5,784 bases of DNA from a virus. Taxonomy: Duplodnaviria > Heunggongvirae > Uroviricota > Caudoviricetes. The position numbers were made by a program, and so were the translations under genes. The stretch lies in IMG/VR virus record IMGVR_UViG_2740892439_000005; one strand, written 5' to 3'. Of this stretch, positions 1 to 5,784 are shown one piece after another. The notes beneath the pieces are model-generated. The model did no database searches and was not told where the DNA came from. It was given only the letters and a program-made list of their open reading frames with translations. Position 1 is the first letter of the stretch, and each line of letters begins with the position of its first letter.

Positions 1-376
1 AGGTGGTTTCCACCAGTGCCTGCACGCCGAAGGTAAAACGCAGTCGGTCAATGTTTGCCGACGTAATGGTGCGGGTGATCGGCGTGTCATATTTCACTTC
101 CGTACCCAGCACCGTCTCGGAGCCGGAGGATTCAAATCCCTCCGGCGGTGTCTGCTCCTGCTCACCGGCCCGGAACACCACCGTGACGCCGGATATATTG
201 GTATTCCCCTCACTGTCCAGCACCGGCGTACTGTTCAGCAGCACGCTTTTTAATCCATCCACCGGACCTTCAACCGGCCCTTCGCTGATGGCATCGATCA
301 CACTCAGCAGCTGCGTGGACTTCAGGTTGTCCTTCGCTTCGCGCGGGGTATGCCCCTTACTGCTGCCTTTACCCAT
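1..376 (-). CDS. J: Tail tip host-specificity / central tail fibre protein J, N-terminal 125 codons only (3' part of the gene lies beyond the left edge)
   Basis: Absent from the ORF track because no stop lies within the window. Manual minus-strand translation from ATG (plus 374-376) reads MGKGSSKGHTPREAKDNLKSTQLLSVIDAISEGPVEGPVDGLKSVLLNSTPVLDSEGNTNISGVTVVFRAGEQEQTPPEGFESSGSETVLGTEVKYDTPITRTITSANIDRLRFTFGVQALVETT with no stop down to position 2. This matches my recollection of the lambda gpJ N-terminus almost residue for residue. GGAG lies ~11 nt upstream of the ATG. Confidence 0.9.
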   Translation of the reverse strand, partial: MGKGSSKGHTPREAKDNLKSTQLLSVIDAISEGPVEGPVDGLKSVLLNSTPVLDSEGNTNISGVTVVFRAGEQEQTPPEGFESSGSETVLGTEVKYDTPITRTITSANIDRLRFTFGVQALVETT

Positions 377-393
377 TCGTCATGCTCCATTAA

Positions 394-418
394 CGATAAA
401 ACCGCCCGGAGGCGGTTT
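394..418 (-). terminator. Candidate stem-loop (8-bp stem AAACCGCC/GGCGGTTT, 4-nt loop) followed by T-rich tract in the I-J intergenic spacer; possible weak intrinsic terminator, attenuator or RNA processing/stability element
   Basis: Minus-strand RNA reads GAAACCGCC-UCCG-GGCGGUUU-UAUCGUU. The palindrome is perfect and sits in the only sizeable non-coding gap in the window (60 nt between I stop 437-439 and J start 374-376). The GC core is only 5 bp and the U-tract is short, so terminator function is uncertain. Confidence 0.25.
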
Positions 419-436
419 CACATAAAACATTTTGCA

Positions 437-1084
437 TCAGCGACCAATCACCACAACCTGACCACCATCCCCTTCGTCTGCCGTGCTGATCTCCTGAGAA
501 ACCACGCGTGACCCCACGCGCATTTCACCGTACAGAACCGGCAGAACATTGCCCTGGGCAACCATGTTATCCAGTGAGGAGAAATAGGTGTTCTGCTTAC
601 CGTTATCCGTTGTCTGTGTACGGGGAGTTCTGGCTTTCGGTGCCAGCATCTGCGCCACACCGCCAAGGATCATACTGGCCCCCGCAGCATACATGCCCGA
701 TAAAGCCGCAGCTCCCAGCCAGCCTGCAGGGTTCCACCACGCCACTGCAATCAGCGCCGCACCCAGCACCGCCTGAAACACACCGCCACTTTTTGCTCCC
801 GCAAGACGCGGCACGATGTGGATCACGGCACCATTTTTCAGCGGCTCATTAAGACGGGCTGATAATTCGTTTTCGCCTGCATCACGCCCGGCAATCCGTA
901 CCTGATACCAGCCGTCGCTCAGTTTCTGACGAAACGCCGGGATCTGCATGGCCAGCGCCCGGATGGCTTCGGACCCCGTTTTCACTCGAAGGTCGATGCG
1001 GCGGCCAAATCGTTGCAAATCCCCGTAAAGGCAGATGCGTGCCATGCCCGGTGACGCCAGAGGGAGTGTGTGCGTCGCTGCCAT
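437..1084 (-). CDS. I: Tail assembly protein I (lambda gpI homologue): N-terminal ubiquitin-like domain, diglycine at residues 100-101, hydrophobic C-terminal domain
   Basis: ORF-track 215-aa protein MAATHTLPLASPGMARICLYGDLQRFGRRIDLRVKTG...GQVVVIGR matches lambda gpI from memory at both N- and C-termini, with a divergent Gly/Ala-rich hydrophobic middle. ATG start at 1082-1084 with GAGG ~12 nt upstream; TGA stop at 437-439. Confidence 0.92.
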   Translation of the reverse strand: MAATHTLPLASPGMARICLYGDLQRFGRRIDLRVKTGSEAIRALAMQIPAFRQKLSDGWYQVRIAGRDAGENELSARLNEPLKNGAVIHIVPRLAGAKSGGVFQAVLGAALIAVAWWNPAGWLGAAALSGMYAAGASMILGGVAQMLAPKARTPRTQTTDNGKQNTYFSSLDNMVAQGNVLPVLYGEMRVGSRVVSQEISTADEGDGGQVVVIGR

Positions 1085-1725
1085 TTGTCGGTGTACCTCT
1101 CTCGTTTGCTCAGTTGTTCAGGAATATGGTGCAGCAGCTCGCCGTCACCACAGTAAATGGCGGCATGATTCGGCACCGATGAACCAAAGCAGCACAGCAG
1201 CACATCGCCCGGTTGTGCTGATGACAACGGCACCTGATACAGCCCTGTGGCCTCCAGATTATCCAGATAGAGATTCTGACCGTGACGCCACCAGTCATCC
1301 CCGCGATGAAAATCCGGCATCTCAATCCCCGCCAGATGATAAGCATCCCGGAACAGCGTGTAACAGTCCGTCACCCCGTGCTCAAAGCGCCGCCCGGTGA
1401 GATGCGGCACACAGCGGAACTTATGAATCGCCCCCCGGCAGACCAGCCACCACGGCAAATCACTCTGCACCTGCAGCCGCCGGTCAGCCTCACTCAGCCA
1501 GGGCAGACCACCGGGGTGGCTGTGGACCAGCGCCACAATCTCACCCTGCATTTCTGCCTGCAGCCAGTCCTCCGGAACCATCCGGAAATAATCCTCCGGC
1601 TCACCGGAAATATTCACGCCGGGAAAATATCTTTCCCCCTCCGGCGCTCTCACCACGAAGCCGCACGACTCCGCTGGCGCACATCGCCGGGCGTGCGCCA
1701 GAATCGCTGATTCTGTCTCTGTCAT
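982..1725 (-). CDS. K: Tail tip assembly protein K (lambda gpK homologue): N-terminal MPN/JAMM (JAB) domain plus C-terminal NlpC/P60-like Cys-His peptidase domain; long 247-aa form (canonical 199-aa lambda form would start at ATG 1579-1581)
   Basis: 247-aa translation MTETESAILAHARRCAPAESCGFVV...HSHPGGLPWLSEAD...GVTDCYTLFRDAYH... matches lambda gpK from memory. JAMM motif H68-x-H70-x7-S78-x2-D81 is present, with a candidate upstream Glu in the E-x-C-G context (AESCGFVV, E19). The frame is open from an ATG 5 nt after the L stop. An internal ATG (Met49) has a GGAGGA Shine-Dalgarno ~10 nt upstream, so the start is ambiguous. Confidence 0.88.
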   Translation of the reverse strand: MTETESAILAHARRCAPAESCGFVVRAPEGERYFPGVNISGEPEDYFRMVPEDWLQAEMQGEIVALVHSHPGGLPWLSEADRRLQVQSDLPWWLVCRGAIHKFRCVPHLTGRRFEHGVTDCYTLFRDAYHLAGIEMPDFHRGDDWWRHGQNLYLDNLEATGLYQVPLSSAQPGDVLLCCFGSSVPNHAAIYCGDGELLHHIPEQLSKRERYTDKWQRRTHSLWRHRAWHASAFTGICNDLAAASTFE

Positions 1726-1730
1726 GGGAT

Positions 1731-2429
1731 TTACTGCGAAAGTTTGTTAATGGAAAGGTAACCGCCAAAGTTGCCGACGTTATTGCGAAACTTACAGCCG
1801 CTCAGGCATTTGCTGCATTTATCCTTCGTGATATCGGACGTCGGCTGGTCATATTCATCCGCGACAGCCGGACCGTGATAACCGCACTCATCACCGCGAT
1901 AGGTCCAGGTGCAGGTGTTGGCCAGCATGATACGTCCCGGAAAAACAGCGCCATCCGTTTCCGTCGGCGTGGACAGTACAAAGGAGGCACTCACCGCGCT
2001 CAGTTCGCTGCACTGCTCGATGCGCCAGCGGCTGATCACCTCCTGCTCCGGATCGGCGTCACTGTTTCCGTTGACGAAGTTCACCGCATCCAGAAAACGG
2101 GCGTAAACCTTACGCCGGACCACCGTTCCGCCGACCAGACTCTGCAGATCTTCCGCCATCCCGGTGACCATACCGTACAGGTTAGAAACCGTCAGCGTGG
2201 GGCGCGTACTGGTGCCTTTGCCATTCAGTTCAAAACCACTCCCCTGAATGGGATACGGCTGATACTGTCGCCCCTGCCAGGTGACCGGCTCACCTTTTTC
2301 GTTCTGCTCATTACAGAAAAAATAACGTTCTCCACCGACCTCTGTCAGGTCGATTTCCCAGAGCACCACGCTGGCCGACTGCTCCGCACGGGTGCATTCA
2401 TTCAGTGTTTCCTGTTGTATGTCCTGCAT
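1731..2429 (-). CDS. L: Tail tip assembly protein L (lambda gpL homologue), 232 aa, with C-terminal cysteine cluster
   Basis: 232-aa translation MQDIQQETLNECTRAEQSASVVLWEIDLTEVGGERYFFCNEQNEKGEPVTWQGRQYQPYPIQGSGFELNGKG... is near-identical, from memory, to lambda gpL and has the same length. C-terminal cysteines occur in TCTWTYRGDECGY and KDKCSKCLSGCKF. ATG at 2427-2429 overlaps the M stop by 1 nt. Confidence 0.93.
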   Translation of the reverse strand: MQDIQQETLNECTRAEQSASVVLWEIDLTEVGGERYFFCNEQNEKGEPVTWQGRQYQPYPIQGSGFELNGKGTSTRPTLTVSNLYGMVTGMAEDLQSLVGGTVVRRKVYARFLDAVNFVNGNSDADPEQEVISRWRIEQCSELSAVSASFVLSTPTETDGAVFPGRIMLANTCTWTYRGDECGYHGPAVADEYDQPTSDITKDKCSKCLSGCKFRNNVGNFGGYLSINKLSQ

Positions 2430-2767
2430 CAGATCACCACTTCGTCAAACTGACACGAAAAATCGGTATAGGTGATATGTTCTGTCGCTGACCACGTTCG
2501 ACACACCACTCTGATTTTTCTGTTAATACCCGGCGGGCGCCAAAAAAAAGATTTATAGCCTTCATGCCGGGCTAAAAATTTTTCAAATGAATCACGTTCA
2601 TTCGCCTCAACTTTGAAATCACAGGTGAAAACGCGCAGAGAATGATTAAGTCCATTTGGACTTCGTTGCTCATAACCATCGCCAAATCTTACAGTTTTTA
2701 TCGATGGTTTATTTTCTGTTTTCATTCCATCCTCTGGTAACCAGTGAAATTCTTCCGTATTAGCCAC
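2429..2767 (-). CDS. M: Minor tail protein M (lambda gpM family), 112 aa, GTG start
   Basis: Translation contains VRFGDGYEQR...GLN...KSFFWRPP...FDEVVI, which aligns with lambda gpM (109 aa; RFGDGYSQR...KSFLWTPP...FEQVVN as I recall) at roughly 45-50 percent identity. Position between the tape measure gene and L. GTG start at 2765-2767 is preceded by GGGGGA; an alternative ATG lies at codon 15. Confidence 0.85.
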   Translation of the reverse strand: MANTEEFHWLPEDGMKTENKPSIKTVRFGDGYEQRSPNGLNHSLRVFTCDFKVEANERDSFEKFLARHEGYKSFFWRPPGINRKIRVVCRTWSATEHITYTDFSCQFDEVVI

Positions 2768-3033
2768 TTAACATTCCCCCATCACGTCGCATATTTAACA
2801 GATTGCCCTGCACCCGCTGATCAACCATCCCCATAAGTGCTTTTATTGCCTGAGGCCAATCTCTCCATTCTGGCCGTCATTTTGAATAGTGATTTGGTAT
2901 ACAGGGGCATAGGTAATATCTCCGCCTCCATTACCACTTTTACTATTAATAGCTCTGACACCAAGAGAACCATCGGAAGTTCGTGTTAATGGCATAATGG
3001 CTTCCGGACCAGCCTCACCAAAAACACCAGCCC
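2760..3033 (-). pseudogene. H: Frameshifted 3' end of the tape measure gene: the conserved C-terminal ~90 codons are split across two other reading frames (shifts near plus 3030-3034 and 2853-2857); true stop TAA at 2760-2762
   Basis: From the break after ...PQFFAFAKG, the -1 frame reads [58 protein letters not shown] and stops at 2843-2845. A further -1 frame reads PQAIKALMGMVDQRVQGNLLNMRRDGGMLSG to TAA 2760-2762, overlapping the GTG of M. The joined sequence resembles the lambda gpH C-terminus as I recall it (...NDGTNGQIGPAALKAVYDM...QMRDGGLFSGGGR). Each break is explained by loss of one base in a homopolymer (plus ccc 3031-3033; gg 2854-2855). Confidence 0.7.
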
Positions 3034-5784
3034 TTTTGCAAAAGCAAAAAATTGCGGGGAATCATAAATACCGTTCGAATACATGTTCAATGACGGAGAC
3101 TCATAAACACCGCCCTTTGCATTCGGAATAAATTTACTAATAGCACTCCCGATAGTTCCTAAAATCCCCCCAGAAGAACTGTTACTAATGCTGTCGAAAA
3201 TCCCAGTAATTGAAGCCTTTAATGCTATTCGACTAAGATCCGAAATCACGGAAGTAGCGAAAGAACGAAAATTTGCCTTGCCTGTCGTGACAAAATCACC
3301 CAGCGCATCGGTCATTCCATCAAACATCTGAGTCGTGGTTGATTTTATCTGCTCACTGATATCCTTAGTGTCATCCAGCCAGTTATTGAATCCCTGGGAG
3401 GCACCACTAACCCAGTCTCCTGCCTGAATATCGAGCTGCTCGTTTTTCTGTCTGACAATGTCTTTTTCTCGTTCCAGAGCATCATTCAGAGCCTGCATTT
3501 TCTCCTGAAAAACATGATTTGACATCCCACGGGATTTATCTGCATAGTCACGTTCAAGTTGCAGACGCTGATTGTTATATTCACGTTCAATCCGCAGTAA
3601 TTCCTGCTGGCGTTGCTGATTTTTATCGCCAACCCCATAACCAGCAATCTGAATATCATACCCCTGTTGACGATTATCAATCGAAGCCTGCAATGAATCA
3701 CGCCATGCAGCTATTTCGGCGGATTCCTTGATTAGCCTGTTATTTTTTTCAATCGCAACATTTTTCTCCATCAACGCGGTTATTTCTTCCCGGTGTAAGA
3801 GAAGCGATTTCTGATCCTGGGTTAATTTCGATGACGGTCGTGACTCCAGGTTGGCAATCTGCTGACGCCACTTAACCAGTTCCTGTTCAGTGGAACTTAA
3901 TTTAACGGTTAATTCAGTTTGTGAACTTAGTAACGCATTCTGTTGATTCAGATGATCAATCATTCGTTGGGCAGCATCATCCGAATAACCTTTCGCCTTT
4001 GGTTGCTTTGGATCTTTATAACGCTCATTTATTTGAGCGATAAGATTATTATATTCTTCCTTTGAATACTGACTCTTTAGCTTTTCCAGTTTTGCAAGTT
4101 CACTAGCTCTCTGCTGCTCCCGGGTCTGATATTGTTTTGAAAAGGCATCTGCTCTCTGTCTGAGTTCAATTCCTTCCTGTTGTCGCTTGTTGTAATCGTT
4201 TATTGATGAATTTAGTACGTCCTGAGCAATTTTTTCTGCTTGAAGTGCGCCCAATTGCTGCTTTAATCGTGCCAGCCTTTTATTTTGAGCTCCGCCATCT
4301 CCAATGCCACCTAACCCGAAAACTCCGGGTCGGGTATTTTTTTCTATTTCATCAATTTGACGGAGAACATCTGAGATTTTTTGATCAAGGGAGGCCTCAC
4401 GGCCAATATCCAGCATGGAATCCCATGCCCATTTTGCGGAGTCTGCGACAGCTTTCCATGCAGTCTCAAGATAACCAAGATTTTCTTTAATCTGGTTGGT
4501 GCGCTGGATCATTGAGGATGAGTATGCTTCTGTCGCAATGCGGGCGGCCTCCTGCTGGTTCCCTTCATCCTGTAGCGCCTTAATCTGGTTATAAGTCGCA
4601 ATTGTCAGAAAATGGTACTGATCATTAAGTTTTGATATGGCACTGACAGGATCCTTTGCAATTTCACTGAAGTCATTAACCAGTTGTTCGGTTGATATTC
4701 CTGTTACTTCGCTCGTTTTTACTATCGCTGTCGTCACTTGCTCCAGCGAACTGCTCGCTACCTTTCCCGAACGCACAAGCTGGTTTAATACTGCCGCCGC
4801 AGCGCCAGTTGTCGAATCAGCCGCATTCCCGGCACGTTGAGCTATATCGGCCAATTGCCCGCTGGTTGTCCCCAACTGATTTCCGGTAAGAATAAGAGAT
4901 TTATTAAATTCGTCCTGCTCCTGAGAGCCTTTATAGTAAGCCAGCCCTAAGACGCCAACGGCTGCTGCGGCCAGGGTAAAAGGATTAATTAATCCCAGCA
5001 CATAAGAACCAACACCTTTGATCGCCGGGCCAATCCCACCGAACATATCTTTTAGCTGGCCGCCCTGCTGCATTAACACCATAAAAGGCGACTGACCAGT
5101 GGACAACCCAACAACAATATCCGTCATTTGTGCAGGCAACATGCGCATAGCAAAAGCCGTTTGTTTTGCCGACATTCCGGTTTTGCTTAATTGAGATTGA
5201 GTAACCTCAAGCTCACTCCGCATAGCACGAAGTTTTCCAGAAAGTTCCTCATACATTTCAGGAGAGAGCATCCCCTTAGCTTTTGCTTCATTGAGCTGTT
5301 TCTGTTGTTCTACCAGACGATTAAAAGCAGTTCCGACAGGGTCAAGTTGAGCAATCAGACGTTGCAAAGCAGCAACCTGTTCATCATGCGCTTTTGCTGC
5401 TTCTCGCTCTGCCTGAGCCTCTCCGGTAAGCTCTCGCCGTGTTTCCTGTATTTTTCGGCTATAATTCTCAAACTGAGAACCATTTATTTTCCCGGATGCA
5501 AACGCAGCATTAAGTTCATCCTGCTGTTGTTCAAGATTTCTTAGCGCCGCAGCCAGAGGGTCGATCTTGTCCAGCATTCTTTGAAAGGCCTGAGCCTGCG
5601 CTTCCTGCTGGGCGGCAGCAAGTTTTCCGGCCTTCTCGGCTTCTCTCTGCGCTTGCGCAACCCCGCTCAATTCCTCTGTGGTTTCATTAAGTTTACGGAC
5701 AAGAAATTCATATTCTTCTTTATCAATAAGCCCTTTATCGAAAAATTTCTTTAATTCAGAATAGCGTCGACCGACAGTATCAAT
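2986..5784 (-). CDS. H: Tail length tape measure protein (lambda gpH homologue), 5' partial; the reading frame is open to the right window edge (the track's 894-aa ORF begins at an internal TTG), and the 3' end is prematurely terminated by a frameshift
   Basis: Minus-strand frame is open from 5784 to the stop at 2986-2988 (932 codons in the window). Contains lambda-H-like blocks: [39 protein letters not shown] (lambda: [11 protein letters not shown]...GGQSPW..LLQQGGQVKDSFGG) and [28 protein letters not shown]. Also long Gln/Glu/Lys-rich coiled-coil-like stretches and hydrophobic segments typical of tape measure proteins. The last 16 residues ([14 protein letters not shown]) look like out-of-frame translation. 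Confidence 0.9.

Follow-up and report, generated by a model that had tools for sequence, protein, structure and literature searches.

The tape measure gene on the minus strand of the DNA analysed here, a stretch of 5784 nt referred to as the window, encodes a lambda gpH-like protein of 1077 aa when intact, and its 3′ end raised the question of whether the gene is disrupted in the prophage itself or only in the assembled sequence. Three-frame translation of window positions 2760-3131 (minus strand) showed the last 90 codons to be spread over three frames, as a sequence-only reading of the window had proposed, and its view that chance does not explain the pattern was supported by alignment of the repaired C-terminus with lambda gpH and PDB 25vf. 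The first 207 nt of the gene fall outside the window end. The features concerned are listed below, with L011 denoting an intact relative.

3034..5784, minus strand: in-frame part of the tape measure gene, approximately codons 70-986 of 1077, with the Pfam domains
3031..3033, minus strand: deletion site 1 and frame shift point, coding GGG versus GGGG in intact relatives (plus-strand CCC)
2986..3030, minus strand: out-of-frame tail of the long ORF, 14 residues followed by a premature TAA (2988-2986)
2855..3028, minus strand: segment B, 58 codons of real tape measure sequence in the second frame, aligning with PDB 25vf and lambda gpH
2854..2855, minus strand: deletion site 2, coding CC versus CCC in intact relatives (plus-strand GG)
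2760..2852, minus strand: segment C, the last 30 codons in the third frame and the natural TAA (2762-2760), homologous to the lambda gpH C-terminal helix
2429..2767, minus strand: gpM homologue (Phage_min_tail), intact, GTG start, with an alternative ATG at 2725 in some records
1731-2429, minus strand: gpL homologue, intact, identical to L011
982-1725, minus strand: gpK homologue, intact, identical to L011
437-985 (or to 1084), minus strand: gpI homologue, intact, identical to L011

Segment B ends in ...GQNGEIG, after which its frame continues for LRQ and reaches a stop at 2845-2843. The third frame, segment C, is translated as QAIKALMGMVDQRVQGNLLNMRRDGGMLSG and ends at the natural TAA, which is overlapped by the gpM homologue, whose GTG start is at 2767. 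When the window was aligned with intact relatives, the coding-strand changes were AAAAGGGGCTGG -> AAAAGGGCTGG at site 1 and TTGGCCCTCAGG -> TTGGCCTCAGG at site 2, the deletion-spanning 31-mers being TTTTGCAAAAGGGCTGGTGTTTTTGGTGAGG and GGAGAGATTGGCCTCAGGCAATAAAAGCACT. Single-base losses were thereby located at the two sites that had been predicted, and the intact relatives have precisely one G more at the first and one C more at the second, as expected beforehand. The proposal of homopolymer indels held in that single bases were lost from runs, with the correction that the runs are short (G 4 to 3, C 3 to 2) and not long homopolymers. When one G and one C were re-inserted, the translation equalled the 1077-aa protein of L011 at all 1008 window-encoded residues, and both additions were needed to join the repaired C-terminus to the remainder of the protein in one frame. 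The two sites are 177 nt apart, a spacing matched or undercut by only approximately 6% of random pairs of window G/C runs of at least 3.

Membership of the gpH family was assessed with the truncated window product, which scored above the gathering thresholds for TMP_2 (274 bits), Tape_meas_lam_C (91.6) and TMP_4 (81.5), all three domains lying upstream of the first deletion. In phage lambda gpH (PDB 8iyk chain H, 853 residues), the alignment with the repaired C-terminus extends to residue 850, segment C corresponding to gpH 816-850; the repaired C-terminus also aligns with 25vf, a second solved tape measure protein. Inside the tail-tip lumen of lambda, gpH residues 818-842 make up a coiled coil that rests on the gpI tripod (PMC10721106); a contiguous helix of this kind was not found in the main ORF of the window, the homologous segment lying two frames off. 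Window ORFs were matched to the Pfam labels precomputed for the same genes in relatives (Phage_min_tail, Phage_tail_L, NLPC_P60, Lambda_tail_I and gpJ domains), and in the resulting gene order the tape measure gene lies immediately upstream of the tail-tip genes gpM-gpL-gpK-gpI-gpJ. The gene shares with lambda gpH the domain set, the order H-M-L-K-I-J and an alignable C-terminus including the tail-tip helix, and differs from it in length (1077 versus 853 aa), in the distant similarity outside the C-terminal third and in the distribution of its last 90 codons over three frames.

L011 (GCA_028557175.1, contig JAOYSZ010000073.1), an E. coli draft with an intact prophage allele, differed from the window by two indels and by no substitution over 5784 positions, the tape measure stretch 3034..5784 being identical. 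The gene was also intact in 10 of 10 phage records, which are 99.1-99.4% identical over 1.1 kb (tape measure end, gpM and the start of gpL); Escherichia phage vB_EcoS-473R12 (ON470609) is an example of an induced phage relative. Unlike the window, the intact E. coli prophage alleles and induced phages carry GGGG and CCC within a single 3234-nt ORF, and the three-frame arrangement was found in none of the intact relatives. As a separate observation, five deposited phage records carry a CAG -> TAG change at codon 833 of the tape measure gene.

Surveys for the deletions were performed at the nucleotide and protein levels. Exact matches to the deleted 71-mers were found in 0 of 707 (site 1) and 0 of 702 (site 2) complete E. 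coli genomes holding the region. The exact deleted patterns did not occur in viral, metagenome or species-representative contigs, the intact pattern occurring 54 times in viral contigs, and the plasmid collection gave no match. All of the approximately 25 draft contigs with the exact gpL or gpI of the window carry the 1077-aa gene, so that no lesion common to same-haplotype assemblies was seen among contigs reaching the gene, and exact look-up of the 182-aa and 215-aa gpI variants returned only intact-gene contigs or contigs too short to reach it. Neither the partial 932-aa product nor the reconstructed 1001-aa product was on record by exact look-up. A protein search with the 50-residue frameshifted tail gave no matches and missed the intact relatives too, the query being uninformative; a 250-aa query returned fragments only, none with the frameshifted tail. 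P0002 (407 aa), which was grouped in the cluster of the 50-aa ORF, is an unrelated protein and was discarded as a clustering artefact.

The sole other carrier of the deletions was Logan contig SRR1596056_88 (L014) from run SRR1596056. This contig was retrieved via the product requiring both deletions, which is a selection effect, and that product is on record in one sample only of a very large gene index. L014 is 96.3% identical to the window (3.7% divergent); compared with L069, the intact relative closest to it, it shows 17 substitutions and 8 indels. Of the indels, seven are G or C deletions in runs of 2-4 and one is an A7 -> A8 insertion; besides the shared pair there are thus six more homopolymer indels. 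At six indel sites of L014 the window has the same local sequence and no deletion. Indel density is 8 in 4567 bp for L014 and 2 in 5784 bp for the window. Background SNPs between the two were located at 3172, 3083, 2978 and 2531, of which 2978 falls between the deletion sites. Two haplotypes carry the deletion pair, and an intact twin exists for each (L011 and L069), which indicates independent recurrence at both sites and not inheritance; because SNP 2978 separates the sites, the sharing with L014 reflects neither descent nor one recombination tract. The deletions are present in the window, are its sole differences from L011 and recur on an unrelated haplotype together with similar indels.

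Judged from these sequences, the two missing bases probably arose as errors when the source of the window was sequenced or assembled. Under-calls of one G or C in a short homopolymer are typically left behind by flow-based chemistry (Ion Torrent, 454) or by an unpolished consensus, and the two losses would be of this kind; the true DNA, from a lambdoid E. coli prophage, would then code for an intact and unexceptional lambda gpH-like tape measure protein of 1077 aa. In natural divergence substitutions far outnumber indels, whereas an indel-prone platform gives the opposite, and recurrence at the same site is typical of systematic error rather than of descent. Error is favoured because the window differs from L011 by two indels and no substitution, and because the pair recurs on another haplotype in a run with six further indels. 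Both changes are of the expected type (GGGG -> GGG, CCC -> CC) and are absent from the nearest relatives; the lack of either deletion in every other copy examined apart from L014, and the neighbouring M, L, K and I genes, which are without decay, also count in favour of error. The earlier reading had offered an inactivated gene or homopolymer errors of assembly; both alternatives stand, and the present data add a lean towards the second.

'High-frequency indel' errors of the Ion Torrent PGM occur at approximately 1 per 1000-2000 bp (Bragg et al. 2013, PMC3623719). Deletions of C/G and insertions of A/T predominate among them, and those with strand asymmetry fall mostly in homopolymers of 2-3; site sharing between runs exceeds chance, although most such errors were reported as run-specific, and they lead to frameshifts in assemblies (PMC3623719). 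L014 with its 8 indels and the window with its 2 fit this profile, sharing with it single-base G/C deletions in short homopolymers at approximately 1 per 1-3 kb that are partly recurrent between runs. The comparison differs in that the platform is known there; here we infer the platform, and hence the technical cause, from the assembled sequence. Counting against error, two further error-laden assemblies of the gene are undeleted at both sites, L070 with 138 indels over 6 kb and L071 with 7, most of which fall in long A runs; on this basis the idea that the sites are general error hotspots was rejected. The undeleted state in the window of six L014 indel sites likewise counts against error. 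The error model also gives no account of the clustering of the two events within 177 nt.

A less likely but serious alternative is that the deletions are genuine and very recent and that the prophage is defective. The protein would then end after residue 987 plus 14 out-of-frame residues, giving 1001 aa and lacking the final 90 residues and with them the C-terminal helix, which in lambda is a trimeric coiled coil on the gpI tripod in the tail tip, and the prophage would build no tails unless complemented by a co-resident prophage. The deletions are, after all, present in the assembled sequence, and a second, independent data set shows the same two; the part that is lost corresponds by homology to the C-terminus of lambda gpH, which matters structurally, and natural inactivating lesions are known in the gene, the stop at codon 833 in five phage records being such a case. 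Short G/C runs are natural slippage sites, notably in mismatch-repair-deficient strains, which also counts for a genuine origin. Against it stand the two indels without any substitution over the whole comparison with L011, the fact that no clone-mate or other same-haplotype assembly has the deletions, the record of the doubly deleted product in a single sample, and the indel load of L014 itself, which appears technical. With SNP 2978 between the sites, a real origin would take four separate and independent events, all at two short runs with nothing remarkable about them. No neighbour decay (substitutions, IS elements or deletions) was found in M, L, K or I; as an argument against a pseudogene this is weak evidence, since a very recent lesion would look alike.

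It is improbable that both sites are true biological hotspots, subject either to recurrent site-specific deletion or to selection for tail-less prophages. The pair was indeed seen on two backgrounds, but no instance was found in approximately 700 complete genomes, 54 viral contigs, 10 phage records or approximately 25 drafts, and the sites show neither a repeat nor an RNA structure. Runs of 3-4 bases are far below the length needed for contingency-type slippage, which counts against a hotspot. Were the deletions real and independent on the two haplotypes, they would point to a site-specific process, mutational or selective, by which the tip-anchoring C-terminus is lost repeatedly, for example through selection for tail-less domesticated prophages, a reading to which we likewise give very little credence.

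Production of the full-length protein from three frames by two -1 ribosomal frameshifts was rejected as having next to no likelihood, given single-ORF relatives and the lack of a heptamer, a stable fold or an Rfam match, and the earlier judgement that programmed frameshifting is unlikely was borne out on the same grounds. At site 1, frame A reads A AAA GGG, and slippage of a P-site Lys-tRNA back along AAAA is conceivable in principle, but neither site (site 1 GCA AAA GGG CTG, site 2 ATT GGC CTC AGG) holds an in-frame X XXY YYZ heptamer, and site 2 (GGC CTC) is without any slippery sequence. Every examined relative has one ORF in one frame, folding z-scores of -1.27 and +1.05 against shuffled sequence gave no indication of a stimulatory downstream structure, Rfam returned zero matches, and two inefficient events in series would yield negligible product. 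The -1 programmed frameshift of lambda G/GT is similar in being a frame change inside the tail gene cluster; its signal, however, lies upstream of the tape measure gene and is a slippery heptamer that is conserved, whereas the window sites have no heptamer and no conservation and require two shifts.

With sequencing or assembly error as the preferred explanation, the occurrence of an indel pair on two haplotypes with intact twins provides a way of separating systematic error from inheritance by sequence comparison. Error and recent inactivation are both ordinary outcomes, neither touches an open biological question, and the consequences are chiefly for annotation. If the deletions are real, this is another recently inactivated lambdoid prophage, a common and well-understood state. 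If they are errors, a tail-defective label for this prophage would be wrong, and the gene ought either to have its frame restored or to carry a flag for a probable sequencing frameshift.

An ORF survey placed part of a lambda-like morphogenesis cluster, its tail-tip end, on the minus strand of the window, with the following features:

5784 to 2760, minus strand, tape measure gene (the window starts 207 nt inside it)
2767-2429, minus strand, gpM homologue (GTG start overlapping the third-frame tape measure stop)
2429-1731, minus strand, gpL homologue
1725-982, minus strand, gpK homologue
985 or 1084 to 437, minus strand, gpI homologue
from about 376, minus strand, start of gpJ

Precomputed Pfam labels on relatives matched (TMP_2, TMP_4, Tape_meas_lam_C, Phage_min_tail, Phage_tail_L, Prok-JAB with NLPC_P60, Lambda_tail_I and gpJ domains), and TMP_2, TMP_4 and Tape_meas_lam_C were confirmed in the shortened tape measure product of the window by direct Pfam scan. 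Three candidate starts (982-1084) are available to the gpI homologue, which is called at 182, 202 or 215 aa by different pipelines; the 215-aa version overlaps gpK by 103 nt. A mosaic boundary lies at about 2406: the tape measure and gpM region (2430-5784) shared >99% identity with hundreds of E. coli prophages, whereas from gpL leftwards through gpK and gpI identity to those records was lower and substitutions were dense. The exact whole-window combination was present in draft assemblies only, the best match among complete genomes being 98.0%.

Two frameshifts near the end of the tape measure gene, proposed by the sequence-only reading, were confirmed. Translation of 2760-3131 in the three minus-strand frames reproduced the described arrangement: the long frame adds 14 residues after its in-frame part and stops at 2988-2986, the second frame runs through GQNGEIG to LRQ and a stop, and the third encodes QAIKALMGMVDQRVQGNLLNMRRDGGMLSG before a stop at 2762-2760 that overlaps the gpM GTG, as had been noted. 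Base-by-base alignment located one missing base at each predicted position, the window having GGG (plus-strand CCC, 3031-3033) at site 1 where relatives have GGGG, and CC (plus-strand GG, 2854-2855) at site 2 where relatives have CCC. With one G and one C restored, the translation was identical to the protein of L011 (GCA_028557175.1), an intact draft relative. The three protein-like segments reflect true homology and not chance, as the earlier reading had argued, because the repaired C-terminus aligned to lambda gpH (8iyk_H) up to residue 850/853 and to 25vf, a second solved tape measure protein. Just after site 1 the coding strand (3023-3030, minus) reads GCTGGTGT, the Chi octamer GCTGGTGG with one mismatch, probably by coincidence.

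The deletions were essentially absent outside the window and one contig, L014 (Logan SRR1596056_88). By megablast, 10 deposited phage records (99.1-99.4% identity) each matched over a stretch 2 bases longer than the query, and the gene is annotated as a single ORF of 3234 nt/1077 aa in 4 of the 10 and in Salmonella phage SPF_0923. In the complete RefSeq E. coli set (5426 genomes, 719 holding the region), best matches were 99.6% over 451 nt, equal to two gap columns, and 99.1% for a 231-nt query; 71-nt queries centred on sites 1 and 2 had exact matches in 0/707 and 0/702 genomes, respectively (best 98.6%, one gap). Exact deleted-site patterns numbered 0 in IMG/VR viral contigs (intact pattern, 54), JGI metagenome contigs and GTDB species representatives, and no plasmid matched. 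Contigs with the window's exact gpL or gpI encoded the family's 1077-aa protein wherever they reached the tape measure gene, except two with a different, 1075-aa type; one of these contigs, L011, was identical at all 5784 positions apart from the two deletions.

L014 was found through a 50-aa ORF that starts inside the second frame, ends GLRQ-stop and requires both deletions, so its existence is partly a selection effect; the ORF is recorded in that contig only. Its 90%-identity cluster (P0001, P0002) also lists an unrelated 407-aa ENA protein, which was rejected as a clustering artefact of the protein collection. Both deletions were verified in L014 by alignment. L014 and the window are not clone-mates (96.3% identity, 164 substitutions); among intact relatives the nearest to L014 is another prophage, L069 of E. 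coli KK19-02 (17 substitutions, 8 indels). SNPs at 3172, 3083, 2978 and 2531 separate a window/L011 haplotype from an L014/L069 haplotype, and the substitution tree ((window, L011) versus (L014, L069)) conflicts with the deletion tree ((window, L014) versus (L011, L069)). A single origin with transfer is less parsimonious: two short conversion tracts would have to be invoked, separate from each other and skipping 2978, which falls between the sites. The simpler reading is that each of the two backgrounds acquired the deletions independently at these two sites.

Such recurrence, together with further indels of the same kind in L014, points to systematic technical error, and the missing G and C are probably a sequencing or assembly artefact. 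In natural divergence substitutions far outnumber indels; the window and L011 show the opposite (2 indels, 0 substitutions). Against L069, L014 has 7 G/C deletions, each in a run of 2-4, and 1 insertion in an A7 run; beyond the two shared deletions, six homopolymer indels lie in 1-4567, several deletions being in GGCC context, and tape measure gene, gpL and gpK are broken into fragments. The 'high-frequency indel' errors of the Ion Torrent PGM, at about one per 1000-2000 bp, are predominantly C/G deletions and A/T insertions, and cause frameshifts in assemblies; strand-asymmetric ones fall mostly in homopolymers of 2-3, with C and G deletions dominant, and sites are shared between runs more than expected by chance (Bragg et al. 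2013, PMC3623719). L014 (8 indels in 4567 bp: 7 G/C deletions, 1 A insertion) and the window (2 G/C deletions in 5784 bp) fit this profile, and both may come from a platform of this kind. Some caveats apply. Most high-frequency indel errors are reported as run-specific, and at the six further L014 indel sites the window has identical local sequence but no deletion. Neither deletion was found in two other error-laden assemblies of this gene, L070 (138 indels in 6 kb) and L071 (7 deletions, most of them in long A runs). In L070 (2885-8835; GCA_046507465.1, 4.76-Mb contig), which looks like a long-read assembly deposited unpolished as a near-complete chromosome, the same prophage region is shredded into small ORFs. 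The deletions are 177 nt apart, a proximity seen in only 6% of pairs drawn at random from the G/C runs ≥3 in the window.

Genuine recent inactivation, the other alternative rightly named by the sequence-only reading, is possible but doubtful. Natural knock-outs of this gene exist: in five deposited phage records (vB_EcoS-606R9, -689R7, -611R4, -683R6 and -885R8) it is annotated as two CDSs, with CAG to TAG at codon 833 (L003:3506-3508 in ON470581.1, about window 3493-3495; read in detail in vB_EcoS-606R9 only), which looks like a genuine nonsense allele that these induced-prophage sequences share. Programmed recoding, already considered unlikely, was rejected: relatives all encode the protein in one frame, an in-frame X XXY YYZ heptamer is missing from both sites, the 86 nt downstream of each showed no folding advantage over shuffles (z -1.27 and +1.05), and an Rfam search gave no match.

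Readings more exotic than artefact or recent pseudogene are very improbable, and both of these are ordinary outcomes. Real deletions would leave a product of 1001 aa that lacks the last 90 residues and keeps the three Pfam domains, all of them upstream of the first deletion. The third-frame segment is homologous by alignment to lambda gpH 818-842, residues that form a three-helix coiled coil inside the lumen of the tail tip, where a gpI trimer holds it (PMC10721106), and without this tip-anchoring end tail assembly would very probably fail.
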